NCBI GenBank assembly: GCA_964440545.1
Contig: CAYTSO010000003.1
Location: 35,184-99,183 of the forward strand
Reading direction: 5' to 3'
Length of the DNA: 64,000 bases
DNA from: an uncultured Candidatus Saccharibacteria bacterium
Lineage (GTDB): Bacteria; Patescibacteriota; Minisyncoccia; Phycocordibacterales; UBA9973
The notes under the pieces are model-generated. The model saw only the letters and a list, made by a program, of their open reading frames with translations, did no database searches and had not been told where the DNA came from. Made by a program: the position numbers and the translations under genes. Positions 17,337-36,489 of the stretch are shown here, piece by piece (position 1 is the first letter of the stretch; every line of letters starts with the position of its first letter).

Positions 17337-17915
17337 ATGACAGACAAAGAAGAAACAAAAGAAGAAAATTCCGAATCTGAAATTTTAGAATTTGAATTCA
17401 ACGAAGACGGAGAAGAAGATTTAAAGAAAACTTTGAAAAAATTCAGAGCTGATTTGAAGGCGTGCAAAAAAGAGAAGGAAGAATATCTAACTGGCTGGCA
17501 AAAAGAACGAGCAGAATTTGCTAATTACAAAAAACAAGAGGAAGACCGCAAGTCCGTTTTTTTTGAGGCGGTAAGGGAACGTATACTTATGCGTTTTTTA
17601 TCTGTTTTGGATAATTTTGACATGGCCTTTGCTAATCGCGAAGCCTGGGAGAAGGTAGATGAAAATTGGAGAAAAGGAGTAGAGTATATTTACTCTCAGA
17701 TGAGTGCAATATTTGAAGAGTATAACATAAAGCCAGTTGGGGAAAACGGGGAGAATTTTGATCCAAATATTCACCAATCTATGGAAATGGTAGAAACAAA
17801 CAAAAAAGAGCTAGAACACAAAATCGCAAGCGTGATCCAAAAAGGATACAAACTTGGAGATAGGGTCATTCGTCCTGCCAGGGTGAATGTGTATGAATAT
17901 AAGGAAAGTAAATAA
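17337..17915 (+). CDS. grpE: nucleotide exchange factor GrpE
   Basis: Acidic N-terminus, a coiled-coil region and a C-terminal beta domain (KGYKLGDRVIRPARVNV). Confidence 0.85.
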   Translation: MTDKEETKEENSESEILEFEFNEDGEEDLKKTLKKFRADLKACKKEKEEYLTGWQKERAEFANYKKQEEDRKSVFFEAVRERILMRFLSVLDNFDMAFANREAWEKVDENWRKGVEYIYSQMSAIFEEYNIKPVGENGENFDPNIHQSMEMVETNKKELEHKIASVIQKGYKLGDRVIRPARVNVYEYKESK

Positions 17916-17973
17916 TATTTACTCTCCATTCTAAAAATTTTGTTCAATACTCGGTGTTTAACAGAAACTCATG

Positions 17974-17991
17974 TACGTAATTAATTACGTA
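17974..17991. promoter_or_regulatory. perfect 18-bp palindrome TACGTAATTAATTACGTA over the -35 position of a TGnTATAAT extended -10 element (17997..18004) upstream of cutA
   Basis: Read directly from the sequence. The palindrome is perfect. An extended -10 (TGGTATAAT) lies 6 nt downstream. Confidence 0.3.
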
Positions 17992-18084
17992 ATTGTGGTA
18001 TAATTAAACAAAGGCCCTCCTTCGTTAAAACTACGGACGGGCAGGTCGACTATTATAATTTTAATAGTTAACATTCTCCATTTT

Positions 18085-18390
18085 ATGATATTTATTCATA
18101 CAAGTTGTGCAAAAATCGAGGAGGCAGAAAAATTAGGGAAAATGATTATTGAAAAAAAATTAGGTGTTTGCGTACATTATTGGCCGATTAAGTCAATGTT
18201 TAACTGGAAAGACAAATTTGAGAATGTAGAAGAAGTAATGATGGCAATCACTACCTTCGAGGGAAGGCTAGAGCAGGTAAATGATTTAATTTCCGAGCAC
18301 CATAGTTATTCTACCCCCATGATTGCCGGCATAGATGTGCGTAGGATCAATCGAGCCTACAAAGAATGGATGATGCAAGAGGTTTCCTAG
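18085..18390 (+). CDS. cutA: divalent-cation tolerance protein CutA
   Basis: 101-aa protein with a ..S...P.I.G..V......Y.EW pattern (HSYSTPMIAGIDV...YKEWM) typical of CutA1. Confidence 0.7.
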   Translation: MIFIHTSCAKIEEAEKLGKMIIEKKLGVCVHYWPIKSMFNWKDKFENVEEVMMAITTFEGRLEQVNDLISEHHSYSTPMIAGIDVRRINRAYKEWMMQEVS

Positions 18391-18441
18391 TAATTTATGG
18401 TTCAGTTTTATTCACCATAACCCTGAGTTTTATCGAATGGG

Positions 18442-18987
18442 TCATTTTCCAAAAGTTTCAAATAAAAACTTTTTAGTTTCTTCGTCTACGAATTGAGAGA
18501 CGATTATCATCATCTCAGCGCCCAATCCCAAATCTTTTTTTATATTTACAAACAAATGCTCATAGGGGAATGGAGAAATCCAAGCAGAATTTTTTAAACA
18601 GACAAAGCCGGCTTTTTTTAATAAATAACGTAATGACTCGCGTTCGTTTTTTCTGCTCTCTGGAACATCCAATAAAATAATTCGCCAATAACCATCCCAG
18701 GAAATATTTGCTAAAGTTGTCTCATTTTCTAGCTTGAGAGTATTGATTTTTTTTCTTCCTTCCTTGGTAAGCCTGGCATATTCATTTTGAGGGGAAGAAA
18801 TGTTTTCAATTAGCCCAGCCTCTCTAAGTCCTTTTAAAGAGCGCGTGATGGCGTATTTGTCGTTTTTAGAACACTCCTGGGAGTTTATCTTATTTGTGAG
18901 TTCTGGTAGGGAAATTGCTGGTTTTTCGCTTAATATTTTCAATATTTTTTTAGAATATTGATTATTTTTTAGTAATTTTCTTGACAT
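18442..18987 (-). CDS. PaaX-like winged-helix transcriptional regulator (Cas2/VapD-fold C-terminal domain)
   Basis: N-terminal wHTH (ILKILSEKPAISLPEL), then WDGYWRIILLDVPESRKNERESLRYLLKKAGFVCLKNSAWISP, matching the PaaX_C W-x-G-x-W...SVW consensus. Divergent to dnaK. Confidence 0.5.
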   Translation of the reverse strand: MSRKLLKNNQYSKKILKILSEKPAISLPELTNKINSQECSKNDKYAITRSLKGLREAGLIENISSPQNEYARLTKEGRKKINTLKLENETTLANISWDGYWRIILLDVPESRKNERESLRYLLKKAGFVCLKNSAWISPFPYEHLFVNIKKDLGLGAEMMIIVSQFVDEETKKFLFETFGK

Positions 18988-19008
18988 ACAGATATAGTAT
19001 CATATATA
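18981..19008 (+). promoter_or_regulatory. candidate sigma-70 promoter for dnaK (TTGACA-16/17-TATATA)
   Basis: TTGACA at 18981..18986 and TATATA at about 19003..19008. An AT palindrome TTAATTATTAATT (19047..19061) lies between the promoter and the dnaK ATG. Confidence 0.3.
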
Positions 19009-19076
19009 CTGGTATTATACAAGTTTTTAGTGGTCGCAAAATATATGTTAATTATTAATTTAATCTTATAAAATAT

Positions 19077-20987
19077 ATGTCAAAAATTATTGGTATCGAT
19101 TTGGGTACAACGAATTCTGCTTTTGCTGTAATTGAGGGTGGAGAACCAAAAATTTTAGAAAATTCAGAGGGAACTCGCACAACTCCGTCGGTTATCGCGC
19201 TAGCCAAGAACGGAGATCGTCTGGTGGGTACCTTGGCAAAACGTCAATCTGTTACTAATCCTAAAAATACAGTTTTCCAGATAAAAAGATTTATTGGTCA
19301 TAATTTTGATGAACCGGGAGTTCAGAAGGACATCAAGGCAGTACCTTTTGAAGTTAGAAAATCAGAGAATGGTGGAATTGACGTGAAGATGGGAGAAAAA
19401 TGGTATCGACCAGAAGAAATTTCCGCCATGCTTTTGCAAAAAATGAAAGCAGATGCCGAGTCTCGACTAGGAGAAAAAATTACCGAGGCAGTTATCACTG
19501 TTCCAGCTTACTTTAATGATGCGCAAAGAAAAGCTACTAAGGATGCAGGACAGATTGCAGGGCTAGAAGTAAAGCGAATTATTAACGAGCCAACTGCAGC
19601 TGCATTGGCATACGGTTTTAATAAAAAGAAGAATGAAAAAATAGTAGTTTATGATTTTGGTGGAGGAACATTTGATATTTCTGTGCTAGAGGTAGGAGAA
19701 GATGTAATTGAAGTAAAATCGACTGACGGAGATTCGCACTTGGGAGGTAAAGACATCGATCAAAAAATAATGAACTGGTTGGCGGACGGATTTCAGAAGG
19801 AGCACGGGGTTGATTTACGAAAGGATCCTTTGGCCAAACAACGCTTAGATGATGCGGCCGAGAAAGCAAAAATAGAGCTGTCTACAGCAGTAGAATCAGA
19901 AGTAAATATTCCATTTATTACTTCTTCGGATGCTGGACCTCTTCACTTGGTACGTACAATGAAGCGTGCTGATCTAGAAGAACTTTGCAAAGAGTTTATT
20001 GACCGAGCAATGGAAATTAGCAAAAGAGCCATGGAAGCCTCTCCTTTCAAGATGGGCGACATTAATGAAATAATTTTAGTTGGTGGACAAACTCGAATGC
20101 CAATGATCCAAAAAAGAGTAGAAGAATTTTTTGGCAAAAAACCGCACATGGGAGTAAATCCGGACGAAGTTGTTGCACTGGGTGCTGCTGTGCAGGCAGG
20201 GGTTCTACAAGGGGATGTGAAAGATGTTCTCTTGCTTGATGTTATTCCATTGTCTCTTGGTATTGAAACTCTCGGAGGCGTGGCCACTAAATTGATTGAT
20301 CGAAATACCACTATTCCTAGTTCTAAATCGCAGGTATTTTCTACAGCAGCGGACAATCAAACTTCCGTTGAAATTCATATTGTGCAGGGAGAGCGTCCGA
20401 TGGCTTCTGATAATAAATCGCTGGGAAGATTTATTCTGGACGGAGTTCCGCCTGCACCTCGTGGCATGCCACAGATTGAGGTCTCCTTTGATGTGGACGT
20501 AAATGGAATTTTAAGTGTTACAGCAAAAGATAAAGCTTCTGGCAAAACTCAGTCAATTAGAATTGAGGCAAGTTCTGGACTAAAAGAAGAAGAAATTAAG
20601 AAAATGCAAGCCGATGCTGAAATCCACGCAGAAGAAGACAAAAAGAAAAAAGAAAATGTAGAGATAAAAAATACTGCAGAAATGCTCGTTTATACAGCGG
20701 AAAAAGCGCTAAAAGACAATGAAGCAAAAATTCCAGCTGATGTTAAAGAGGGTGTAAACGCGAAAATAACCGCCTTGCGCAGTGTAAAGGATGGCTCTGA
20801 CGGAGAAGCAATTAAAAAAGCCACCGAAGAGCTTTCTGCTGAAATGTCTAAAATTGGTGAAGCAATGGCAAAAGCTGGAGCAACACCGGGTGCAAATCCT
20901 ACCCCAGAGGAACAACCCTCAGAAGTCCATGATGCTGAATTTAAGGAAAAAAAGGAAGGAGAAGAAGGTGAATCACCAAAAGCATAG
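19077..20987 (+). CDS. dnaK: molecular chaperone DnaK (Hsp70)
   Basis: [30 protein letters not shown] signatures. 636 aa. Confidence 0.97.
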
Positions 20988-21002
20988 TTTATAAGACCCC
21001 AA

Positions 21003-21025
21003 AAGCCCCGCAAGGGGCTTTTTAG
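21003..21025 (+). terminator. intrinsic terminator after dnaK
   Basis: AGCCCC-GCAA-GGGGCT hairpin followed by TTTTT. Confidence 0.5.
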
Positions 21026-21056
21026 TTTAAGGAATGTTTGATATAATCTGTCTATC

Positions 21057-23135
21057 ATGGATCTTCCAGAAATACCTAGAAATAAAGATATAACTTATCT
21101 TGGGCTTACAACTTTTCGCGACAAAAATCAGCTTTTTGGTATTAAGCGCAAGGATCGACGTCAACACGTTTACGTGCTTGGAAAATCCGGAACCGGTAAA
21201 TCCGTACTCCTTTTCAATATGATTACCCAAAACATTCAAAACGGGGAAGGGGTTTGCGTGGTTGATCCTCATGGCGAACTTGTAGAAAGTGTCCTTTCTT
21301 CAGTGCCGGAAAATAGAGTAAAAGATGTTATTTATTTTAATCCAGCCGACACCGATTATCATGTTGGTTTTAATGTTTTAGAACTCATTGATCCTCAATA
21401 CAAACATCTAGTGGCTTCAGGTTTGATGGCAATTTTTACTAAAATTTGGGCGAATGCCTGGAGCGCTCGTATGGAATATATTTTAAATAATTGTATCTTG
21501 GCTTTACTGGATACCCCTGGAACCACCTTGCTTGGTATTCCGCGTATGTTGGTGGACAAAGATTATCGCCAGAAAATTATTACCAACTTGAAAGATCCTG
21601 TTATTAAAGCATTCTGGGTGCATGAATATGAGGCCTGGCAAGAAAAATTCCGTAATGAAGCCATTGCACCAATTCAAAACAAAGTTGGACAATTTCTCTC
21701 TACCTCAATCATTCGAAATGTCGTTGGTCAAACCAAGAGCACAATCAATATTTTTGACATAATGAATGAGGGAAAGATATTTTTGGTAAATGTCTCCAAG
21801 GGGCGCATTGGCGAAGACAATTCCGCGCTTTTGGGTGGAATGATTATTACTAAGATTCAATTGGCAGCAATGGAGCGCGTGCGTATTCCAGAAGAAGAAC
21901 GAAAAGATTTTTATTTATATGTAGACGAATTTCAAAATTTCGTAACAGATGCTTTTGCTGGCATTTTGTCTGAAGCTCGAAAATATCGACTAAATCTTAC
22001 TGTCGCGCATCAATATACCGCCCAGCTTGTTTCTGATAAAAGCTCAGCTGTGCGAGATGCGGTTTTCGGGAACGTTGGAACAATGATCGTTTTTCGGGTT
22101 GGCTCTGATGATGCCGCTTTTCTGGAACAAGAATTTGATCCTGAATTTACTCCGTCGGATATAGTGAATTTGCCGAACTATAAGATTTACCTGAAGCTAA
22201 TGATAGACGGGGTGACCTCCAGGCCATTTTCAGCGAAAACCTTGCCCCCGATGACTAAGGCAGATAATAAAAAAGTAGCTGAAGAAGTTATTAGATCCTC
22301 TAGGGATCTTTATTGCAGGCCTAAAGATGTAATTGAAAGGGAAATCAATGAATGGAGCGGTATGTCCTTAGGAGATGACAATATTTCTTCTTTTGGCGGG
22401 ATGGAAAAATTCAAAATTATTTGTTCGCTCTGCGGGCTGGAAAAGACAGTTCCGTTCAAGCCAGAGCCAGGCAGATCAGTTTATTGTAGGGAATGCATTG
22501 CAAAAATAAAATCAGGTGAAGTTAAGATAAAGAAGGGAGGGGATGATCAGTTTAAATACGATGAGTCTACTTTTTTCAAGCCCTTGGCTGATTTGGGTAT
22601 TGAGTTTGACCAGAAGAGAGTTGAAAAAAATAGAGAAATAAATAAAGGGAAAAAAATAATACAAGACACTAAACCGATTGCTCCAACGAGCAGGCCTGGC
22701 GTGTTTGGAGCCATTAAAAAAGCATTTATTAAAAAAGAGAAGCCAAAAGTAGTTTCTGGGGACGGAAAAAATTTAGCATTAAAGGAAGCTCTGAATAAGG
22801 TGATTCCAAAAGAAACAATCTCAGAGCCATCACCGAAACATGCTTCGCTAGATATTCTTAAAAAACAGACAGAAGGGGTAGACAAAAATATTTCAACAAA
22901 TAAGCCTATACATACTGGTGGGGATCGTGCCGCTAGTTTAGAGGAAATGAATAAATTGAAAGATTTGATTTCTACTGCTGTCGCGGGGCAAGCAGAAAAA
23001 ACCCCCAACCAGAGCAAGTTCGGTACGGGGCAGGCAGAGAAGAAAGAAATTCCGCCTTCTGCGCCGACTCAAAAAGAGACAGGTAAACCCAAGGAAGTGC
23101 CAGAGGATGTTCTAAAAAAGATTTTAGAAGGGTGA
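21057..23135 (+). CDS. soluble TraG/VirD4/TraD-like (type IV coupling-protein family) P-loop ATPase with C-terminal zinc ribbon and K/E-rich tail (paralog 1)
   Basis: Walker A VLGKSGTGKS, VVDPHGEL, Walker [10 protein letters not shown], and a TraG-D_C-like SEARKYRLNLTVAHQYTAQL...FGNVGTMIVFRVGSDDA segment. No N-terminal TM helices. C-terminal CSLCG...CRECI zinc ribbon. Confidence 0.65.
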   Translation: MDLPEIPRNKDITYLGLTTFRDKNQLFGIKRKDRRQHVYVLGKSGTGKSVLLFNMITQNIQNGEGVCVVDPHGELVESVLSSVPENRVKDVIYFNPADTDYHVGFNVLELIDPQYKHLVASGLMAIFTKIWANAWSARMEYILNNCILALLDTPGTTLLGIPRMLVDKDYRQKIITNLKDPVIKAFWVHEYEAWQEKFRNEAIAPIQNKVGQFLSTSIIRNVVGQTKSTINIFDIMNEGKIFLVNVSKGRIGEDNSALLGGMIITKIQLAAMERVRIPEEERKDFYLYVDEFQNFVTDAFAGILSEARKYRLNLTVAHQYTAQLVSDKSSAVRDAVFGNVGTMIVFRVGSDDAAFLEQEFDPEFTPSDIVNLPNYKIYLKLMIDGVTSRPFSAKTLPPMTKADNKKVAEEVIRSSRDLYCRPKDVIEREINEWSGMSLGDDNISSFGGMEKFKIICSLCGLEKTVPFKPEPGRSVYCRECIAKIKSGEVKIKKGGDDQFKYDESTFFKPLADLGIEFDQKRVEKNREINKGKKIIQDTKPIAPTSRPGVFGAIKKAFIKKEKPKVVSGDGKNLALKEALNKVIPKETISEPSPKHASLDILKKQTEGVDKNISTNKPIHTGGDRAASLEEMNKLKDLISTAVAGQAEKTPNQSKFGTGQAEKKEIPPSAPTQKETGKPKEVPEDVLKKILEG

Positions 23136-23178
23136 ATCCGGAAATAGATTTTGAGATAGATCAGGAAATTGTAAAAAT

Positions 23179-24921
23179 ATGGAAACCAGAACATGTCAAA
23201 ATTGCAAAAGTGAATTTGTGATAGAGCCGGAGGATTTTAATTTTTATGAAAAGATTAAAGTTCCACCGCCAACTTTTTGTCCGGAATGCCGAACGATACG
23301 CAGATTGTGTTTTCGGAATGAGATGTCTTTGTTTAAAAGACCTTGTAATTTTCATGGTCATAAGGAAATTTTAATCTCCGCTTTTCATCCAGATGAAAAA
23401 TTAGTGGTTTATGATTTAAAAAGTTGGTGGGGGGATGGATGGAACCCATTAGATTTTGGCCGTGAATATGATTTTTCAAAATCCTTTTTTGCTCAATGGA
23501 GGGACTTTAGGGATAGTTTTCCTTTACAGGCTCTTTCAAATTCTAATGCGGTAAATAGTGATTATTGTAACGTAGCGGATGATAGCAAAAATTGTTACTT
23601 GATTTCTGGGTCAGAATCCTGCGAACAGACAATGTATTCTAATAGAATAATTAAGGTAAAAGACTCATTAGACTTGTATATAGTTAATCGCTCGGAGCTT
23701 TGCTATGATGATGTTTATTGCTTTGATTGCTACCGTGTTCTTTATTCTATAAATTGTAAAAATTGCGTTGATTCTTATTTTTTATATGATTGCGTGAATT
23801 GCGTAAATTGTTTTGGTTGTAGTAATTTAAGAAACAAATCATATTGTCTCTGGAATCAGCAGTTGACCCAAAAAGAATATAAAGAAAAGATCAAGGGATT
23901 AAACCTAAACAGCAGACAGGCAATTTTAAATTTTAAAAAGGAGTTTAATAAATTATACATTAATTCTATTCATCGTTTTGCTAATCAGGTTAAAACAATT
24001 AATTCAACCGGGAACAATTTAATTGGTGCAAAGGATTGCAAATACTGTTTTGACCTAGATGGTCAAATTGAAAACTCAAAAAATGTTCATTGGGGAGGGT
24101 TAAGCATAAAAGATGTTTATGATGGTGGTCCGGGGATTGGAAATACCGAGCTTGCGTATGAAATGTTTGACACCGGACTCGGTAGTCATCGTAGTCTGTG
24201 CACAAGCGTGGTATATGGTTCGAGTGATGTAGAGTATTCGTTCAATTGTTATAATTCTTCGAATCTTTTTGCTTGTTTTGGGTTGAGAAGTAAAAAATAT
24301 TGTATTTTTAATAAACAATATTCTAAAGAGGAATATGAAAGGATGGTTAATAAAATTAAGGACCAAATGAATGAAATTCCTTATATAGACAAAAACAATC
24401 GAACATATAGATATGGCGAATTTTTTCCAATTGAGTTATCTCCGTTTGCCTATAATGAGACAGTGGCGCAGGATTACTTTCCAATAACGAAAGAAATTGC
24501 TGAAAAAATGGGTTATAAATGGAGAGATAAAATAAAAAATGAATACAACGTCACTTTGAATTCAAAGAACATACCAGATAACCTTAACGAAACAAATGCT
24601 TCAATCTTAAAAGAAGTGATTGAGTGTGCGAATAATGGAAAAGACAACGGTAGGTGTTTGGGGGTATTTAGGATTTTAGAGAACGAGTTAAATTTATACA
24701 AAAGAATTGGTGTCCCTGTACCAAATTTATGTTTTGCTTGTCGCCATGCCGAACGGTTAAGTAAGCGAACCTCTCTTAAGCTCTGGCGTCGTCAGTGTAT
24801 GTGTGAAAAAGAGGGGCATGGTCACAAGGGAAGGTGTCAAGTAGAATTTGAAACCAGCTACGCCCCAGATCTTCCAGAAATAGTTTATTGTGAAAAGTGT
24901 TATCAGAAGGAAGTATATTAG
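23179..24921 (+). CDS. cysteine-rich multi-zinc-ribbon protein, unrecognised family (paralog 1)
   Basis: 580 aa. N-terminal C-x2-C..(20)..C-x2-C ribbon (CQNCKSEF..FCPECR). Central arrays of C-x2-C/NC-x2-C repeats with two copies of a C.GLR.K.YC..N.Q...EEY unit. C-terminal CFACRH...RQCMCEKEGHGHKGRC...YCEKCY. Not assignable to a family from the sequence. Confidence 0.65.
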   Translation: METRTCQNCKSEFVIEPEDFNFYEKIKVPPPTFCPECRTIRRLCFRNEMSLFKRPCNFHGHKEILISAFHPDEKLVVYDLKSWWGDGWNPLDFGREYDFSKSFFAQWRDFRDSFPLQALSNSNAVNSDYCNVADDSKNCYLISGSESCEQTMYSNRIIKVKDSLDLYIVNRSELCYDDVYCFDCYRVLYSINCKNCVDSYFLYDCVNCVNCFGCSNLRNKSYCLWNQQLTQKEYKEKIKGLNLNSRQAILNFKKEFNKLYINSIHRFANQVKTINSTGNNLIGAKDCKYCFDLDGQIENSKNVHWGGLSIKDVYDGGPGIGNTELAYEMFDTGLGSHRSLCTSVVYGSSDVEYSFNCYNSSNLFACFGLRSKKYCIFNKQYSKEEYERMVNKIKDQMNEIPYIDKNNRTYRYGEFFPIELSPFAYNETVAQDYFPITKEIAEKMGYKWRDKIKNEYNVTLNSKNIPDNLNETNASILKEVIECANNGKDNGRCLGVFRILENELNLYKRIGVPVPNLCFACRHAERLSKRTSLKLWRRQCMCEKEGHGHKGRCQVEFETSYAPDLPEIVYCEKCYQKEVY

Positions 24922-25613
24922 ATATTATTTACAGCTCGGTAGGTAGCGACGATGGCGGCAGTTTCGCCACGGAGAGTTAGATTTCCCAGGGAGGCGACGG
25001 TATAACTGGAATTTTTAGCGAACTCAATTTCTTTTTCCGTGAAGCCACCCTCGGGGCCAACAAAAATATTAGCTTTTTTTGCTTTCTTGTCTGGTGAGTA
25101 TTTTTTTCCATTTAAATCAAAGATGATTTTTTCATCTTCCATACTTCCATTAGCTAATGCATCTTTGAAATTTAAAATCGGGGATAATTCTGGAACAGTA
25201 TTTCTCCCGCATTGTTCGCTTGCCTCTAAAATTATTTTTTTCAAACGTTTTTCATTCAACCCAGTTTTTACAGTTCTCTCGGTGATAATCGGTGTTATCG
25301 ATGAGACCCCAACCTCTACTGCTTTTTGTACAGCTAGTTCAAAATTTTCTTTTTTTAGAATTGCCAAATATAAATTTACTGCTTTTTGCGCGTCTTGTTT
25401 TTGGCTGATTTTTTCAATTTTGCAGATGATTTCATTTTTTGAGGCAGAAAATATGCTTGCTTCCGCCTCGACACCCCTGCCATTTGAAAGGATAATTTTT
25501 TCGCCAATTTTAAGCCTTAAAACAGCTTTTATTTGCCTGATCGTTTCAGGATTTAAAATTTTTACTTCCTCTTTCAATAAATCATATTCGCCGATAAATC
25601 TATGTAATTTCAT
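24918..25613 (-). CDS. rsmE: 16S rRNA (uracil1498-N3)-methyltransferase RsmE
   Basis: PUA-like N-terminus (RLKIGEKIILSNGRG) and SPOUT C-terminus with IFVGPEGGFTEKEIE. Commonly linked to dnaJ. Confidence 0.8.
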   Translation of the reverse strand: MKLHRFIGEYDLLKEEVKILNPETIRQIKAVLRLKIGEKIILSNGRGVEAEASIFSASKNEIICKIEKISQKQDAQKAVNLYLAILKKENFELAVQKAVEVGVSSITPIITERTVKTGLNEKRLKKIILEASEQCGRNTVPELSPILNFKDALANGSMEDEKIIFDLNGKKYSPDKKAKKANIFVGPEGGFTEKEIEFAKNSSYTVASLGNLTLRGETAAIVATYRAVNNI

Positions 25614-25654
25614 GCTTAATATGATATACTAGAAAGGCAAATCATCAAAATTTT

Positions 25655-27160
25655 ATGTCTAAGCCGAATCGAGTGCAAATAATAAAATATGCTCCACCTC
25701 CGCCAGAATTGCCTGTGTATGGAAAAGTAAAGCCGGAAGAGGTATCCTTTTTCGGACGTACAAATTACGTGGCTTCCTTGGAAGAAAAAAAATTTATTTT
25801 CGGAATCAAGCGAGTTGATCGTCGTAGGCATCTTTATATAATCGGAAAATCAGGGGTTGGAAAAACTAAACTACTAGAACTGCTCTTGCGTCAAGATATC
25901 ACTTATAATCACGGCTTATGCTTGATAGACCCACACGGAGACGTGATAGATGCAATGCTTGATTATATCCCCAAGGAAAGAGCAGAAGACGTTTGCATAA
26001 TTGATCCTTCAGACGTAAATTTTCCAGCTTCCTTTAATCCATTGGCAAACGTGGATCCAATGTTTAAGTTTCAATTAACCCAAGGATTGATTGAGGTATT
26101 CCAAAAGCAATTCGGGGCGAACTGGACACCTCGTCTTGAGCACGTTTTTCGTTTTACTTGTTTAGCTCTTTTGGATTATCCACATGCCACGATGCGGGGA
26201 ATGATTTCAATGTTAACGGATAGAAATTATAGACAAAAAGTTGTGGAATATATTACAGACGACATGGTTAAAAGATTCTTCGCTATTGAATTCGCGGATT
26301 GGTCAGAAAAATTTGATACCGATGCCATCATTCCATTGGTAAATAAACTGGGTCAATTCCTTTCGGATCCATTACTTCGAAATATTTTTGGACAAAAAGA
26401 AAATAAAATTGATATGAGCAAGCTGATGAATGAAGGAAAAATCATCCTTATTAATCTTTCTAAGGGTCGTCTGGGTGAAGAGAACTCTTCCTTTCTCGGT
26501 TCCATGTTTTTAACAAAAATAAAACAAGCTGGAATGGAGCGAGCCGCTATCCCAGAAAAAGATCGAGTAGATTTTTACCTTTACGTGGATGAGTTTCAAA
26601 ACGTAGTGACTCAAACTTTTGAAAATATTTTGTCAGAAGCTAGAAAGTATGGATTGAATTTAACTATTGCTCATCAATATGTCGGCCAAATAATTACCAA
26701 GGTTCATCAGGCAGTGTTGGGTAATTGCGGAAGTATTATCACCTTCAGGGTAGGTGGGGAGGATGCAGTAAAAATGAAACCAGAATTTGCTCCTATCTTC
26801 GACGTGAAGGATATGATAAATCTTGCAGTTGGAGAAATTTATGTAAAAATGACAATAGATGGAGAATCTTATGATCCATTTTCTGCGGAAACGCTCAGGG
26901 TGCTTCCCCCTACACATTCTTCTTGTAGAGAAGAAATTATCGAAGCTTCACGCAGGAAATACTCAATATCCAAAGATTCGGCGGCAAAACTTATCGCCGA
27001 GGAAGAAGCCTCAATTATTCGAAGTGCCGAGGAAAAAGCTATTATTGAAGGAAAAAAGAAAGGAAAGGCTAAATCCAGTGAAACTGGAACGCCCGGCGCT
27101 TCTGAGGAAACGCTTAGGGAAGAAGAAAAAACTTCACAAGAAGCTGAACCTATGATATAA
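25655..27160 (+). CDS. soluble TraG/VirD4/TraD-like P-loop ATPase (paralog 2, no zinc ribbon, acidic tail)
   Basis: Same architecture as 21057..23135: [47 protein letters not shown]...[16 protein letters not shown]. Roughly 45-50% identical to paralog 1 by eye. Confidence 0.65.
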
Positions 27161-27168
27161 CCCCATAT

Positions 27169-28275
27169 ATGAAAAAGGATTACTATGAAATTTTAGGAGT
27201 AAAAAAAGACGCGTCTAAAGAGGAAATCAAAAAAGCCTTTTATAAAATGGCGCACAAATATCATCCCGACAAAGGGGGCGGAAACGAGGCAAAATTCAAA
27301 GAAGTAAATGAAGCTTATCAAGTATTGTCTAGCGACGAAAAGCGTTCAAAATATGATCAATTTGGATCTGGCTTCGAAAACATGGGAGCTCAAGGGGGAT
27401 ATGGCAGGGGAGGCTTTGATGGCTTTGATTTTTCTGGCTTTTCCACCAGAGGCGGACAAGCGAATGGAGGAATGGAATTTGACTTTGGTAATCTAAATGA
27501 TATTTTTAGCGATTTTTTTGGAGGCGGAATGGGTGGAGGAAGACAACAGGCAAGACGAGGCAGGGATATTTCTACTGAAATCCAAGTTTCTTTTGCCGAT
27601 GCAGTTTTTGGCACAACTAGAAAAATTTTAATCACTAAGACTTCTAGGTGTTTAACCTGTGATGGTTCTGGGGCGAAGGCTGGTACAGGTATGGAAACTT
27701 GTAAAAAGTGTAATGGGCAAGGAAAAATTCGCGAACAAAAAAGAACTATTTTTGGAATTATTGCGAATACAAAAACCTGCGAGACCTGTCTGGGTACAGG
27801 AGAGGTGCCAAAAGAAATCTGCGATAAGTGCAAGGGTAAGGGTATTTTGCGTCGAGAAGAAGAGGTGCCTATTGTTATTCCAGCTGGAATTCGCGATGGT
27901 GAAATGGTTCGAATGGCCGGTTACGGAGAAGCAGTTTCCAAAGGAACGACAGGGGATTTATATATAAAAATAAATGTGACACAGCATCCTGTATTTAAGC
28001 GTGCTGGCAATGATTTGGTAATGAATTTAGACCTGAAGCTCACCGAAGCTCTTTTGGGGGCAAAATACACGATTCAAACCCTAGACGGAGAAATTGAAGT
28101 AAAAATTCCAGAAGGTGTCTCTATAAATGAAATTCTTCGCGTGCGGGGTAAGGGTGTTCCAGTGTCAAAAAGCAAGCGCGGTGATCTTCTCATAAAACTA
28201 AACATAAAACTTCCATCAAAACTTTCCCGCAAATCTCGTGAAATTATAGAGGAATTAAAGAAAGAGGGAATTTAG
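27169..28275 (+). CDS. dnaJ: chaperone DnaJ
   Basis: J domain (DYYEILGV...HPDK), G/F-rich region, four CxxCxGxG zinc-finger repeats and a C-terminal domain. Confidence 0.95.
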
Positions 28276-30029
28276 TGATGAAAGCACAAACTAAAAATTG
28301 TCAAAATTGCAAAAAAGACTTCGTCATTGAGACGGAGGATTTTAATTTCTATGAAAAAATCAAAGTTCCTCCACCGACTTGGTGTCCAGAATGCAGAATG
28401 ACAAGGCGATTTGCCTGGAGAAATGAAATTAATTTGTATAAAAGAAAATCTAGTCTATCCGGAGAAGAAATTATTAGCCAATATTCGAAAGATGTTGTTT
28501 TTCCAGTTTTTTCTGTAAAAGAGTACTATTCTAGAGAATGGGATATTCCTTTTGTGGATTATTCATTTGATAAAGGTTTTTTTGAGCAATTTTTTGCACT
28601 TCAACAAATAACGCCACATTGCGCGCTTTTAACTGACTTGCAATCAATGGAAAATGGTAGTATTTATCAGAATTCAGCAAGCCGAAACAAGAATTGCTAT
28701 ATGGTTAGCGCTTCAGGAGACAACGAAGATTCTCTGTATGGAAACAATCTAGACTATTCAAAAAACTCAATTGATTGCTTTTGGTGTAGGAGAACGAATT
28801 ATTCCTATGAGTCAACCGATTCGGTGGATTGCAATATGATCTTTTTTTCCGAGGAGTGTAAGCAGTGTGTTGATTGTTGGTTTTGTTTCGAATGCCGAAA
28901 TTGCGTAAACTGTTTTGGCTGTGCGGAGCTTAGAAACAAATCCTACTGTTTTTTCAATGAACAGCTTTCCCAGGAAGATTATAGTAAAAAAATTCAGGAT
29001 TTTTTTGAGAATCTGACAAGAGAAAAAATCGGTGAGATAAAAGATAAATTTAAGAAATTTAGTAATACTTTTCCTAGAAAATATGCCCATGTTGATTCAA
29101 ATAGTAATTATACTTCCTCTGGGGATTATATAATTAATTCAAAAAACGTTGTTAGAGGTTTTTTTATTCATGATAGTGAAAATGTTCGTTATTGCTCAAA
29201 AATAATTAAAGGCAGTGATTGCTGGGACACTAGTGATTGGGGAGATCCGATTGAGCTTTGCTACGAGAGTATAACAATAGGCAAGGGTGCTAATAAAATA
29301 TTTTTTTCTAATAACTGCTGGCCAGAATGTAGAGAAATACAGTATTGTGATTCTTGTTCAAGCTCTCACCACTTATTTGGTTGTATTGGTCTAAAAAATA
29401 AATCCTACTGCATCCTTAATAAGCAGTACGCTAAAGAAGAATACGAAGAACTAGTGCCAAAAATCATTCAGCATATGAACGATATGCCTCATATAGATAG
29501 TAAGGGTAGGGTATATAAATATGGAGAATTTTTCCCCGTAGAGCTTTCACCCTTTTTTTATAATGAAACAATCGCACAAGATTATTTTTCACTTTCTAAA
29601 AACCAGGCCCTTTTTTGTGGTTTTGGCTGGAAGGAAGAGGAAGAAAAAAACTACACGATAGACATTAAAAAGGGGCAAATACCTACAATTATTGATCAGG
29701 TCAATGAAGATATAATAAATAAGGTTTTAGAATGTGAACACGAAGGAAATTGCAACGAAAAGTGTACGAAGGCTTTTAGAATAGTAGAAGCAGAATTTCG
29801 ATTTTATAAAAAAATGAATTTACCTTTACCACATTTGTGCCCTAACTGTAGACACTACCAAAGACTGAAACAACGTAATCCATTAAAGCTTTGGCACCGA
29901 CAATGTATGTGTGAAAAAGAAGAGCACGGACATAGGGGTCGTTGCCCAATAGAATTTGAGACTTCTTATGCGCCCGAACGACCGGAGATTGTTTATTGTG
30001 AAAAGTGCTATCAGAAGGAAGTATATTAA
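28275..30029 (+). CDS. cysteine-rich multi-zinc-ribbon protein, unrecognised family (paralog 2)
   Basis: 584 aa. N- and C-termini nearly identical to paralog 1 (CQNCKKDF..WCPECR and ...RQCMCEKEEHGHRGRC...YCEKCYQKEVY). GTG/ATG start overlaps the dnaJ stop (TAGTGATG). Confidence 0.65.
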   Translation: MMKAQTKNCQNCKKDFVIETEDFNFYEKIKVPPPTWCPECRMTRRFAWRNEINLYKRKSSLSGEEIISQYSKDVVFPVFSVKEYYSREWDIPFVDYSFDKGFFEQFFALQQITPHCALLTDLQSMENGSIYQNSASRNKNCYMVSASGDNEDSLYGNNLDYSKNSIDCFWCRRTNYSYESTDSVDCNMIFFSEECKQCVDCWFCFECRNCVNCFGCAELRNKSYCFFNEQLSQEDYSKKIQDFFENLTREKIGEIKDKFKKFSNTFPRKYAHVDSNSNYTSSGDYIINSKNVVRGFFIHDSENVRYCSKIIKGSDCWDTSDWGDPIELCYESITIGKGANKIFFSNNCWPECREIQYCDSCSSSHHLFGCIGLKNKSYCILNKQYAKEEYEELVPKIIQHMNDMPHIDSKGRVYKYGEFFPVELSPFFYNETIAQDYFSLSKNQALFCGFGWKEEEEKNYTIDIKKGQIPTIIDQVNEDIINKVLECEHEGNCNEKCTKAFRIVEAEFRFYKKMNLPLPHLCPNCRHYQRLKQRNPLKLWHRQCMCEKEEHGHRGRCPIEFETSYAPERPEIVYCEKCYQKEVY

Positions 30030-30032
30030 TCT

Positions 30033-30623
30033 ATGTTTCCAGAACAAATTATTATTGTTGGAGTTTTGATAAATCTGCTCTGTTCTCTTTGGTATATCAA
30101 AAATATTTTAAGAGGGGATACTAGGCCGAATCCGGTTTCTTGGTTTATTTGGTCCTTGGCTCCATTTATTGGAGTATTTTTGCAATTAAAGGCTGGGGCC
30201 ACTTGGTCAGTGATGGGAGTATTCATGGCCGGTTTTGCCCCACTTCTAGTAGTAATTTTTTCCTTATTTAAAAAAAATGCCTTTTGGAAAATACAATCTT
30301 TTGATATTTTCTGTGGGCTTTTTTCTGTACTTGCTTTAGTTATTTATATAATAACAAGTAACCTATGGATTTCCATTCTTTTTGCTATTACCAGTGATTT
30401 TCTTGCTTACATTCCAACCTTTGTAAAATCATGGAAGAACCCAGAAAGTGAAACAAGTTCTGTATACTTGGGAGGAATAATTAACAACATCATCGCGATG
30501 CTGATTATTAAAAATTGGGCATTTGCCGTTTACTCTTTTCCGTTATATCTAGTGTTAGTGAATTTAGCCGAGGTGGCTGTGATTTACCGTAAAAAGTTTT
30601 TGAGAATAAAAATTATTTCTTAA
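30033..30623 (+). CDS. polytopic membrane protein, unknown function
   Basis: 196 aa with about six hydrophobic helices. No motif recognised. Confidence 0.45.
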   Translation: MFPEQIIIVGVLINLLCSLWYIKNILRGDTRPNPVSWFIWSLAPFIGVFLQLKAGATWSVMGVFMAGFAPLLVVIFSLFKKNAFWKIQSFDIFCGLFSVLALVIYIITSNLWISILFAITSDFLAYIPTFVKSWKNPESETSSVYLGGIINNIIAMLIIKNWAFAVYSFPLYLVLVNLAEVAVIYRKKFLRIKIIS

Positions 30624-33961: not shown

Positions 33962-34288
33962 ATGAAGAAAGAGGAATTTGCAGTAATACATACAGGCGGA
34001 AAACAATATAAAGTCTCTGAAGGAGGCGTTGTTTCTATTGAGAAAATAAAAGGCGAATTCAAAAAAGGAGATAAATTGTCTTTCGATAAAGTCATGCTAG
34101 TGGATGATGGCAAGGATACAACTATCGGTACCCCTTATATTAAAGGAGCAAAAGTAGAAGGGGAGTTAATAGAAATCGGACGATCTAAAAAAGTACTGGT
34201 GGTAAAATACAAACAAAAATCTCGTTATCTAAAACGCAACGGCCACCGTCAACCGTTTTTCAAAGTAAAAATTAGCTCGATAAAATAA
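33962..34288 (+). CDS. rplU: 50S ribosomal protein L21
   Basis: FAVIHTGGKQYKVSEGGVVSIEKI...KVLVVKYKQKSRYLKRNGHRQPFFKVKI. Confidence 0.9.
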   Translation: MKKEEFAVIHTGGKQYKVSEGGVVSIEKIKGEFKKGDKLSFDKVMLVDDGKDTTIGTPYIKGAKVEGELIEIGRSKKVLVVKYKQKSRYLKRNGHRQPFFKVKISSIK

Positions 34289-34290
34289 AA

Positions 34291-34316
34291 AATCCCGTTT
34301 GACGGGATTTTTTATT
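34291..34316 (+). terminator. intrinsic terminator after rplU
   Basis: AATCCCG-TTTG-ACGGGATT hairpin followed by a T-run. Confidence 0.6.
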
Positions 34317-34410
34317 TGTGTTTGCATTTTGCATGTTTTTGTATAGTATAAAATTTGGTGGACAAAAATTGCCCTTTGACATATGTGCAAACCCCAGAAA
34401 GGAGTTGACC

Positions 34411-35832
34411 ATGCCAAATCTAATGCTTCCGGGGAACCCCCGGTACCAACCGAAGGAACTTCAAGCGTTCTTCGGCTACGACAGATTGTTTGAGGCTGTC
34501 GCTAGTGTCGAGATCGCGACCATGCAAACCTTGGCCGAGATCGGTATCATCCCTGCGGCGGACATCACCGTGCTTACTTCGGTGATCAAAGAAGAACTTT
34601 TTGCTATCTCGACGAGCGAAGTTGACGAGCTTGAGCGGAGAGTAACCAAGCACGACATCCGCGCTTGGGTGCGAATTGCCCAGGGCAAAATGGAGCCCGG
34701 GCTTCGTCGGTGGGTCCACGTGCCGCTGACGAGCTACGACGCACTCGACACTGCTCGTGCGGTGCAGTTCGTGCAAGCTCACAACAATGTGGTGAAGAGA
34801 TTCACAAACAAAGTGATCAGTCACTTTGTGGATCAGGTCTACCGTTTTGCTGACCAACCGCAGATTGGCCGAACACACGGCCAGCACGCCCTTCCTATCA
34901 CGGTCGGATTCTGGTTCGCAACAATTTTGAACCGGATTCTCTCCAACATCCAAGCGGCCAACGCTGCTGCGGAAAAACTGGTCGGGAAGATCTCAGGAGC
35001 CGTGGGCGTGTATAACGCTCAGGTTGGTCTTGGTATTTTGGCTCGTTGCGGAAGCAAAACCTTCGAGGAGCGTGTGCTCGAGAAGCTCGGCCTTAAGCCC
35101 GCGCCGATCAGCACGCAGATTCTCCCTCCGGAGCCACTCGCGGACTACTTGTTTGCTTGTGTTAAGCTCTCTGCTACGTTCGGTCAGTTCGGACTCGATG
35201 GACGGCATCTTATGCGTACCGAGATTGCCGAACTCGGGGAACCTTTCGAGTCGGGTCAGGTTGGTTCTTCGACCATGGCCCACAAACGAAACCCTATCAA
35301 CTTTGAAAACTTGGAGGGAACCTGGAAGAAGAACAAGGCTGAGTTCTACAAGGTGCTCGAGTGCATGACGAGCGAGCACCAGCGGGACTTGGTTGGTAGT
35401 TCAATCACTCGCGATTTCCCGACGATCGTCGTGAACGTCGTCAACCAGCTGAATACTCTGCTTCGAGAAGCGGGAGGCAAACCGTTTATCTCTCGCATCT
35501 CGGTCGACAAGGCTGCTTGTGAGCGGAACCTCAAAGCTCAGGGCGATGCTATTCTTGCAGAGCCGATTTACATTGCTCTTCAAATGGCTGGTTATGAAGG
35601 CGATGCTCATGAGCTCGTGAACCATGTGGCTTTGCCGTACGCGAAGAAACACAACATGTTGTTGCTTGCGGCGACGCGCCAAGTGCTTTCGGATTGCAAC
35701 AGCATCGTTTGGAAAAACATTCCGAGTGACACTGTTCAGATGCTTGAGGATTCCGAGCGCTACACCGGCAACGCGGCAGAAAAGGCGTACGAAATCGCCA
35801 AAGCCGCCGAAGCGTATCTCAAGACGAAGTAG
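34411..35832 (+). CDS. purB: adenylosuccinate lyase (class II fumarate-lyase family), high-GC
   Basis: GSSTMAHKRNPINFEN lyase signature with PurB-type NP(I/V)(D/N)FEN. AAAGGAG RBS 7 nt before the ATG at 34411. GC content is far above the flanks. The track ORF start at 34318 is an artefactual extension. Confidence 0.85.
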   Translation: MPNLMLPGNPRYQPKELQAFFGYDRLFEAVASVEIATMQTLAEIGIIPAADITVLTSVIKEELFAISTSEVDELERRVTKHDIRAWVRIAQGKMEPGLRRWVHVPLTSYDALDTARAVQFVQAHNNVVKRFTNKVISHFVDQVYRFADQPQIGRTHGQHALPITVGFWFATILNRILSNIQAANAAAEKLVGKISGAVGVYNAQVGLGILARCGSKTFEERVLEKLGLKPAPISTQILPPEPLADYLFACVKLSATFGQFGLDGRHLMRTEIAELGEPFESGQVGSSTMAHKRNPINFENLEGTWKKNKAEFYKVLECMTSEHQRDLVGSSITRDFPTIVVNVVNQLNTLLREAGGKPFISRISVDKAACERNLKAQGDAILAEPIYIALQMAGYEGDAHELVNHVALPYAKKHNMLLLAATRQVLSDCNSIVWKNIPSDTVQMLEDSERYTGNAAEKAYEIAKAAEAYLKTK

Positions 35833-35850
35833 TAGAAACATCACAAACTC

Positions 35851-35880
35851 AAAAGGAGGGGCTTCGGCCTCTCCTTTTTA
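35851..35880. terminator. bidirectional intrinsic terminator between purB and recR
   Basis: AAAA-GGAGGGGC-TTCG-GCCTCTCC-TTTTT, with an A-run and T-run on either side. Confidence 0.6.
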
Positions 35881-36489
35881 CTGTCTATTTTTTAGGGCGT
35901 TTTTGAGAGTGTCATTGTCGGAATATTCTAATTCAGTGCCGGTAGAGAGACCTTTACCGAGGGAAGAAATTTTTATGTCCGACTTTTCGCAAAGGCTTTT
36001 TAATTGTTCTCGTACGTATGCATCAGTATGGTCGCCCTGTGGACTGATAGAAAAAGCTAAAATTATTTCCTTCAATTCTTTTTCACGCTCAATTTTCTTT
36101 TTTAATTCTTCAATTCGTACTCGACTTCTGGTGTTTTTTTCAACAATCGGGACCAGTCCACCCAGAACAAAATATTTTCCATGATAGGCGTGACTCTTTT
36201 TTACGCTTTCTAAATCAGAATCTTTTTCTACTACCATCAACACAGAGGAATCAGTGTGTTGATTCGCGCAAATCTCACAGACTTTTTCTTTTTTGGAATT
36301 TAAAATAAAGAATCGATAACATTCCTTGCATTGCGCTGTTTCTTTTTTTAGTTCAGAAATCAAGGAAGATAAATTTTCACCATAGGCGGGAGTTTTGGCC
36401 ATTAAAAAATAGACAAAACGTCGCGCTTGTCGTTCTCCGATACCCGGGAATTCCTTAAAAATTTCTGTTAGTTTATCTATGATGTCCAT
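35878..36489 (-). CDS. recR: recombination protein RecR
   Basis: FPGIGERQARRFVYFL (HhH), a C4 zinc finger (CKEC...CEIC) and a Toprim domain. Confidence 0.9.
   Translation of the reverse strand: MDIIDKLTEIFKEFPGIGERQARRFVYFLMAKTPAYGENLSSLISELKKETAQCKECYRFFILNSKKEKVCEICANQHTDSSVLMVVEKDSDLESVKKSHAYHGKYFVLGGLVPIVEKNTRSRVRIEELKKKIEREKELKEIILAFSISPQGDHTDAYVREQLKSLCEKSDIKISSLGKGLSTGTELEYSDNDTLKNALKNRQ

Follow-up and report, generated by a model that had tools for sequence, protein, structure and literature searches.

The genes Cys1 and Cys2 lie in a 64,000-nucleotide stretch of DNA, here called the window, that covers positions 35,184 to 99,183 of contig CAYTSO010000003.1 (assembly GCA_964440545.1). 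We found that both are genuine genes of an undescribed protein family which, according to its named records, is restricted to Parcubacteria/Paceibacteria. Each protein is predicted to carry a zinc module at either end and two thin beta-solenoids between them, and comparison of these parts shows that the architecture arose by two nested duplications, one of the zinc modules and one of the solenoids. Cys2 is an ancient paralog of Cys1 with identical architecture (44% identity across the full length, E 1e-169). Treble-clef fingers and beta-solenoids are known building blocks; undescribed, and not covered by any curated model, are the thin period-3 solenoid lined with Cys and Ser, its combination with zinc modules, the invariant connecting segment and the entire family. 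Taking this description and a role together, we tentatively read the family as non-enzymatic, zinc-stabilised binding scaffolds, each made specific by its variable solenoid. The identity of the metal, the binding role and the partner are all points that we infer with low confidence.

Architecture of Cys1 and Cys2

Cysteine makes up 5.9% of Cys1 and 6.5% of Cys2, against 0.66% across the 41 other long open reading frames (ORFs) of the window, where the maximum is 2.2%. The content is 9-10 times that of the other window proteins and thus far above chance. The proteins contain 34 and 38 cysteines, respectively, fewer than the more than 40 each that had been counted in a first-pass annotation made by a model from the sequence, and CxxC motifs number 10 in Cys1 and 13 in Cys2, with a median of 0 in the other long window ORFs. 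Homologs are not confined to this genome: thousands of full-length ones, under purifying selection, were found elsewhere and rule out a spurious ORF.

An AlphaFold2 model of Cys1, built on 150 sequences, reached a predicted local distance difference test score (pLDDT) of 84.3 and a predicted template modelling score of 0.86, with a weaker zone at residues 140-220 (pLDDT 54-69). Conservation is highest at both ends and at residues 361-440, residues 141-200 and 241-360 are variable, and the helical cap at 231-262 has the lowest information content and is the least conserved region of the protein. The first-pass reading of a multi-zinc-ribbon protein holds for the two ends, predicted to be zinc-ribbon/treble-clef modules, and fails for the centre, where more than half of the protein is modelled as two thin beta-solenoids. 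No signal peptide or hydrophobic segment was detected (maximum hydropathy 0.88), and a membrane or secreted location is ruled out by hydropathy. Fusion to other domains was also rejected, since the apparent long matches proved to be adjacent copies; the best 150 representatives measure 428-612 aa, nearly all of them being full-length at 545-612 aa.

At the N-terminus the ribbon reported earlier was found as C-x2-C-x24-C-x2-C. Its cysteines, C6, C9, C34 and C37, form the two CxxC knuckles of a treble-clef finger (strands 2-5 and 12-15, helix 35-43, model pLDDT >90), followed by a basic helix with R38, R41, R42, R46 and N47; the second finger of this module is degenerate, as it has lost the Cys of the counterpart of the last site. 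The C-terminal module, in which the quoted signature CxxCRH...RQCMCEKE.HGH.GRC...YCEKCYQKEVY is present, holds a first predicted site of C483, C493, C518 and C521 plus H523 and a second of C540, C553, C571 and C574. The latter is of the CxxC-x17-CxxC type (C553-x17-C571-x2-C574) with an expanded first knuckle, enlarged in Cys1 by a His-rich insertion (C540-x-C542-x10-C553). Among the 150 relatives, C6/C9/C34/C37 are 97% conserved and all eight Cys of the C-module sites 100%. Because of this pattern of conservation, three structural zinc sites are likely, one intact in the N module and two in the C module. Nearly invariant Arg residues occupy the helices after the zinc knuckles (R38/R41/R42/R46, with N47, and R522/R526/R530/R538), and HHalign aligned the N module with the C module (residues 9-83 and 493-575) with a probability of 98.8% and E 1e-16, which shows the two modules to be homologous.

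Known finger families resemble parts of these modules, although the scores of Cys1 and Cys2 do not reach the curated cut-off of either model. The zf_Tbcl model (PF13451) aligned with residues 3-41 of Cys1 at 17.7 bits (E 0.0036), under its cut-off of 24, and gave no match to Cys2; E values below 0.1 were obtained for 13 of 32 relatives (best 9e-4), and the relative P0134 has a precomputed PF13451 match. Neither Cys1 nor Cys2 matched zf_Tbcl_2 (PF23477/TIGR04272) at E <=1, and 4 of 32 relatives did so (best 5.2e-5). A divergent paralogous subgroup has a canonical CxxC-x17-CxxC as its last finger; about 17 of its 120 listed members have a precomputed PF23477.2 match, and two are named 'CxxC-x17-CxxC domain-containing protein' by the Joint Genome Institute (JGI). 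This domain type binds zinc in purified small proteins of M. mazei, as determined by inductively coupled plasma mass spectrometry (PMC12704099). The zf_Tbcl, zf_Tbcl_2 and TIGR04272 domains are small treble-clef fingers of about 35-48 residues and of no known function that occur alone or as tails, whereas in Cys1 and Cys2 such fingers only cap a 580-aa protein in which more than 300 residues of solenoid and connecting segment belong to no family. We also observed that in the divergent subgroup (L031:5467-7146 and its orthologs, with only 23 Cys) the first C-module site is missing its CxxC through loss and the first knuckle of the N module is C-x9-C, so that the number of zinc sites differs between paralogs.

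Between the modules the sequence is periodic. The identity autocorrelation of solenoid 1 was 0.10-0.13 at multiples of 3 and 0.04-0.06 at other lags, with a shuffled mean of 0.068. At positions 124, 127, 130 and onwards, 88% of residues are C/S/A/T/G/V/I/L/M/F, against 47% and 31% in the other two phases, which bear charged and polar residues, and in the 9-residue register the three inward positions favour, in turn, small or hydrophobic residues, Ser, and Cys. From one relative to another, Cys and Ser replace each other freely at such positions (139, C 54% and S 44%; 184, C 46% and S 40%; 163, S 53% and C 33%). Most of the central CxxC arrays are positions of the solenoid core, every third residue pointing inwards and open to exchange of Cys and Ser, and not the zinc ribbons that the first-pass annotation had seen in them; the array it quoted, INCKNCVDSYFLYDCVNCVNCFGCSNL, is present in the sequence.

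Within the solenoids, conservation is fixed only at the ends. Solenoid 1 ends in C205-x2-C208-x2-C211-x2-C214...C223-x2-N226 (C205/C208/C211/C214 89-99% conserved, N226 100%) and solenoid 2 in C357-x8-C366-x8-C375-x2-N378 (Cys 93-99%, N378 100%). A helix and a conserved cap, C-x8-C-x8-C-x2-N, close either solenoid, and other core Cys exchange with Ser. The statement that the paralogs retain all their Cys is thus too broad: those of the terminal modules are kept at 97-100% across the 150 relatives, and many of the central ones interchange with Ser.

The internal repeat that had been noticed is real and larger than described, since HHalign aligned residues 131-230 with 279-382 (probability 99.85%, E 1e-30), which shows the whole solenoid to be duplicated. 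As originally written, the repeat unit C(F/I)GL(R/K)xKxYC(I/L)(F/W)NxQ(L/Y)(S/T)xEEY occurs once in Cys1 (residues 366-386) and not in Cys2; with a loosened pattern it occurs twice per protein, at 211-234 and 366-386 in Cys1 and at 213-236 and 370-390 in Cys2, the first copy having a 3-residue insertion in both proteins. The YGEFFP..YNET..AQDYF stretch, said to follow each copy, follows only the second and occurs once per protein. It belongs to the nearly invariant segment at residues 401-480 (Y412-GEFFP-x-E-x-S-x-F-x-YNET-x-AQ-x-YFP, mostly non-helical, pLDDT >90), which connects solenoid 2 to the C module.

Other repeat classes did not account for the centre of the protein. A period-5 repeat was contradicted by a lag-5 identity of 0.045, under the shuffled mean, and no pentapeptide Pfam match was obtained; nor did Cys1 and Cys2 show the Hexapep Pfam signal with period-6 repeat that marks hexapeptide-repeat transferases. 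No ferredoxin-type CxxCxxCxxxCP motif or Fer4 match was found, the motif present being CxxCxxCxxC without Pro. Known beta-solenoids used for comparison were curli CsgA (8c50), the hexapeptide-repeat transferases and the antifreeze proteins of two insects, spruce budworm (1m8n) and Tenebrio (1ezg), which are thin beta-helices containing Cys. The Tenebrio antifreeze protein has the consensus TCTxSxxCxxAx, and the window proteins resemble it in placing small inward Cys, Ser and Ala at every third position. In contrast to the insect proteins, Cys1 and Cys2 have neither TxT ice-binding arrays nor a signal peptide, and their solenoid is duplicated and flanked by zinc modules. Moreover, as the protein is cytoplasmic, its core Cys are unlikely to form disulfides.

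Extent of the family and its paralog arrays

Each paralog gave more than 7900 hits and retrieved more than 7400 proteins among the matches listed, and a profile search of 1.84 billion representatives returned 5318 clusters (50% identity) at E <=1e-3 and 2295 at E <=1e-30. Save for the two JGI labels mentioned above, all matches are named 'hypothetical protein'. The informative organism names all denote Parcubacteria lineages (Nomura-, Staskawicz-, Giovannoni-, Jorgensen-, Lipton-, Wolfe- and Niyogibacteria, Sungiibacteriota, Paceibacterota and Minisyncoccia). The family also appears in many records labelled Saccharibacteria and in one labelled Gammaproteobacteria. The public organism labels of locus L024 and of many 'Candidatus Saccharibacteria' TPA_asm records look wrong, and so does that of a 'Burkholderiales' contig (L058, JAMPXW010000002.1, 267 kb), because its gene order is the Parcubacteria order of the window.

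The family proved to be as unrecognised as first proposed. Pfam, NCBIfam, PADLOC and PHROGs gave no match above their curated thresholds: NCBIfam gave nothing meaningful for Cys1 and Cys2, PADLOC returned nothing under E 0.017 for the family proteins, and the best PHROG match was phrog_15341, of unknown function, at E 5.8e-4. Sequence searches of the PDB with single sequences and with profiles all gave E >0.7, including a chance-level LIM-like alignment, and Foldseek against the PDB yielded no relative by fold beyond generic beta-solenoids. A match to an annotated family of known function was looked for and none was obtained, nor did we find a description of the family in the literature.

The comparison covered 79 loci from species-representative genomes and 186 extracted family genes. 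At least two copies lie within about 22 kb in 52 of the 79 loci, up to nine in L083, and 90 of 94 neighbouring pairs are co-stranded, with a median spacing of 71 bp. Adjacent tandem copies share a median identity of 42% (maximum 53%), random pairs 43%, and only 4 of the 186 genes have their nearest relative in their own locus. The arrays are thus old sets of distinct paralogs, and recent tandem amplification or concerted evolution was rejected because neighbouring copies are as diverged as random pairs. Identity between orthologs is 55-67% for Cys1, 48-59% for Cys2 and 55-75% for the divergent subgroup (the 582-aa group). The Cys1 cluster comprises 13 members in 13 loci, five of them directly 3' of the TraD-like ATPase 1 gene (TraD1), which the Cys1 orthologous group usually follows. 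A 672-kb single-contig genome carries at least eight copies in three loci and at least one elsewhere, co-directional inside the core operons ftsW-X-murG, purB-X, scpB-X-X-X and X-rpsO (X, family gene). In a Nomurabacteria locus (L001, 13799-20468) three copies flank genes for a class II ribonucleotide reductase, thioredoxin and a DsbB-like protein, a redox neighbourhood that may be coincidental.

Many diverged copies with a conserved framework and a variable surface are also a feature of cyanobacterial pentapeptide-repeat proteins and of the ankyrin/tetratricopeptide-repeat (TPR) effector repertoires of obligate symbionts. Neither sequence nor periodicity relates Cys1 and Cys2 to these, and the window proteins differ from them by their zinc-finger caps, their housekeeping operons and their ancient, individually conserved paralogs.

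The chaperone block and its TraD-like ATPases

The window consists of core housekeeping genes of low GC content (about 36%), and an Rfam search of it returned no element. Both family genes belong to a chaperone block ordered grpE, PaaX-like, dnaK, TraD-like 1, Cys1, rsmE-like, TraD-like 2, dnaJ, Cys2 (Table 1). Cys1 starts 43 nt 3' of the gene for TraD-like ATPase 1. The Cys2 GTG overlaps the dnaJ stop codon by one base (28275), the first of the former and the last of the latter, a spacing so tight that it points to co-transcription and possibly to translational coupling; the public annotation begins Cys2 3 nt past the GTG. Strong promoter-like sites in the block were found only before grpE and dnaK.

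Orthologs of ATPases 1 and 2 are 86-91% identical across genomes, and N-terminal membrane segments are absent from both. ATPase 1 carries a CxxC-x17-CxxC finger at residues 450-484 (TIGR04272, 47 bits, cut-off 36) and a long Lys/Glu-rich tail; HHalign related this finger weakly to the last finger of Cys1 (probability 58%, E 1e-4). The ATPase domain also matches the C-terminal half of the 824-aa phage family phrog_5156 (E 1e-62), of unknown function, and the defence model mad8 (E 2e-14).

Table 1. Features of the chaperone block and regions of Cys1, in window coordinates. Residue numbers refer to Cys1.
Feature	Position	Strand	Remarks
Cys1 gene	23179..24921	+	580 aa; basis: ORF, homologs, AlphaFold2 model
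N-terminal zinc module (predicted)	23179..23523	+	residues 1-115; pLDDT 91-97; Cys 97% conserved
Beta-solenoid 1 (predicted)	23536..23868	+	residues 120-230; period-3/9; core of Ser, Cys and small hydrophobic residues
Basic helical cap after solenoid 1	23869..23964	+	residues 231-262; isoelectric point 9.9; helices 231-239 and 246-261
Beta-solenoid 2 (predicted)	23965..24324	+	residues 263-382; duplicate of solenoid 1 by HHalign
Helix 383-399 and nearly invariant YGEFFP segment	24325..24618	+	residues 383-480; pLDDT 92-98, mostly coil
C-terminal zinc module (predicted)	24619..24921	+	residues 481-580; two predicted zinc sites
Cys2 gene	28275..30029	+	584 aa from GTG, or 583 aa from ATG at 28278
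Context block	17337..28275	+	grpE to dnaJ, family genes in variable slots
grpE	17337-17915		in context block
PaaX-like regulator	18442-18987	-	PaaX_M; TIGR02277, E 2e-7
dnaK	19077-20987		in context block
Soluble VirD4/TraD-like (FtsK-HerA superfamily) ATPase 1	21057..23135	+	Pfam TrwB_AAD_bind, zf_Tbcl_2, DUF87, TraG-D_C
rsmE-like	24918-25613	-	in context block
Soluble VirD4/TraD-like ATPase 2	25655..27160	+	without zinc finger; Pfam/NCBIfam search
dnaJ	27169-28275		in context block

The block recurs with 0-4 family genes per slot in L004, L005, L017, L021, L058, L087-L098 and L128, the slots lying after grpE, dnaK, traD1, traD2 or dnaJ. A TraD-like ATPase is directly adjacent to a family gene in 24 of the 79 family-selected loci and DnaK, DnaJ or GrpE in 17. 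Because this sample is biased to Cys1 orthologs, we retested the linkage from the ATPase side by a metagenome scan. Close TraD1 orthologs (>=83% identity) were nearly always found in the dnaK block with family genes, and an obligatory partnership with TraD-like proteins was not upheld. Thus the association of family and ATPase is real in this lineage and not obligatory, and it may partly mirror the family's habit of residing in tightly packed core operons. A survey of candidate phyla radiation (CPR) bacteria counted 5713 VirD4 homologs in 2918 genomes, only 148 of them near virB4, and raised the possibility of exaptation (bioRxiv 10.1101/2025.01.22.634366). The family described here is a candidate partner of such orphan VirD4-like ATPases.

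Several further genes of the window were observed alongside. The PaaX-like gene lies divergently between grpE and dnaK, and as this position is kept in many related genomes, it is suggested to encode a regulator of the heat-shock block. The gene at 30033-30623 encodes a hydrophobic protein of 196 aa that matched nothing in Pfam or NCBIfam, and in many syntenic loci this gene is found directly 3' of dnaJ or of family genes; it is followed by genes for an agmatinase/arginase, cysteinyl-tRNA synthetase and an AI-2E-type transporter on the minus strand. At 34001-36000 the GC content reaches 0.49, compared with about 0.36 elsewhere, and this rise coincides with a GTG-initiated, adenylosuccinate-lyase-like ORF (34318-35832; Lyase_1/ASL_C). 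This GC-rich ORF may have been horizontally acquired.

Possible roles of the family

As binding scaffolds, the proteins would use their highly conserved and basic end modules to dock onto a common partner, either nucleic acid or a conserved housekeeping machine. Foremost among possible partners would be the soluble VirD4/TraD-like ATPases and the DnaK/DnaJ/GrpE system, which are apparently co-transcribed with many family members, and the variable surfaces of solenoid and helical cap would give each ancient paralog its own target. In favour are the scaffold-like conservation, with constant ends around a variable centre, the antiquity and sub-functionalisation of the paralogs, and the neighbouring ATPase and chaperone genes, one ATPase bearing a similar finger. 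A number of points weigh against this proposal. No homolog with an annotated function was found to back it. In the ATPase-selected scan, 11 of 52 TraD-like genes were followed by a family gene, TraD-like proteins with <=63% identity to the window TraD1 had no family gene nearby, and L094 and L096 contain the dnaK-traD1-traD2-dnaJ block without one. Adjacency may reflect only tight operon packing, because the copies of the 672-kb genome reside in unrelated core operons. Furthermore, the overall isoelectric point (pI) of Cys1 is near neutral (7.6, net charge only +2), which is atypical of proteins that bind nucleic acid strongly, internal salt bridges could account for the invariant Arg residues, and an active or cofactor site could equally well lie behind the YGEFFP..YNET segment and the C205/208/211/214 cluster.

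Direct binding of nucleic acid, with the basic treble-clef helices contacting DNA or RNA and each paralog acting as a gene- or operon-specific regulator or RNA-handling factor for its own operon, is an unlikely alternative, though the likeliest of the four considered. CPR genomes encode few classical regulators, and family copies sit in many different core operons. In either end module a stripe of invariant Arg runs along the helix that follows the second zinc knuckle, the C module and the first helical cap are basic (pI 8.6 and 9.9), and the neighbouring FtsK/HerA-type ATPase bears the same type of finger. However, the small net charge speaks against such a role, as does the acidity of solenoid 1 (pI 4.5); no DNA- or RNA-binding family was matched, and 580 aa is large for a regulator.

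We regard a redox, iron-sulfur or metal-storage protein as quite improbable. In this reading a cluster, or several metal ions, would lie within the solenoid, bound by C205-x2-C208-x2-C211-x2-C214 and the C357/C366/C375 ladder. These seven Cys are 89-99% conserved while the other solenoid Cys swap with Ser, the model is least confident at 140-220, as it would be if it lacked a cofactor, and one paralog array lies near the thioredoxin, DsbB and ribonucleotide reductase genes described above. Against this, the CxxCxxCxxxCP motif is absent, Fer4 and radical-SAM models gave no match, and the solenoid 2 equivalents of positions 208 and 211 are Ser and Leu. The period-3/9 spacing would place the Cys in a stacked core ladder and not round one centre, and many diverged copies per genome would be unusual for electron carriers.

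By analogy with the repertoires of obligate symbionts, the proteins might instead be exported effectors of host interaction, recruited by the VirD4-like coupling-protein homologs and kept unfolded by DnaK, which we consider very doubtful. A multi-copy solenoid family with a variable central surface, in genomes of obligate-symbiont type and frequently adjacent to type IV coupling protein homologs and the Hsp70 operon, would agree with it. Yet a signal peptide is lacking, the C-terminus is a strictly conserved, predicted zinc-bound finger in place of a disordered basic tail, and the paralogs are each 55-75% identical across many lineages, unlike fast-evolving effectors. The ATPases have no N-terminal membrane segments, most CPR VirD4 homologs are not near a type IV secretion system (bioRxiv 10.1101/2025.01.22.634366), and three structural zinc sites, as predicted, would speak for proteins that fold and act in the reducing cytoplasm.

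Finally, it is scarcely credible that the family is selfish or mobile, or part of anti-phage defence, and invades the intergenic slots of operons: variable occupancy of every intergenic slot of the grpE-dnaK-traD-dnaJ block, presence inside otherwise conserved operons such as ftsW-murG and the weak resemblance of the neighbouring ATPases to HerA and mad8 defence ATPases would fit it, but searches of 50,697 phage records and 72,556 plasmids (tblastn) and of IMG/VR returned no homolog, and these negative results, together with those of PADLOC, PHROGs and NCBIfam, disfavour it, as do the absence of nuclease, transposase and integrase domains, gaps (median 71 bp) with no room for terminal repeats, and the age of the copies, none of which are near-identical within a genome and whose neighbours share at most 53% identity.

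The most far-reaching reading is a long shot: the family would be the missing partner set of the thousands of orphan soluble VirD4-like ATPases that lie away from any type IV secretion system, in a Parcubacteria-specific, Hsp70-linked machine. If so, a finger-bearing ring ATPase would work with at least eight zinc-capped beta-solenoid adaptors or clients, and the thin period-3 solenoid lined with Cys and Ser would be a new metalloprotein fold. For structural work, the new zinc-protein and thin-solenoid architecture is easily testable, and the unexplained orphan VirD4-like ATPases of CPR bacteria gain in the family a concrete candidate for a link. CPR genomes commonly contain unannotated families, and a model for this one would name several thousand 'hypothetical proteins'. 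Parcubacteria are thought to discard dispensable genes, and their genomes measure roughly 0.7-0.8 Mb where complete or single-contig examples were available here. In the 672-kb genome, at least eight copies of 1.7 kb, each conserved across lineages, occupy about 2% of the DNA; such an investment argues for an important, lineage-defining cellular role that current annotation has missed.

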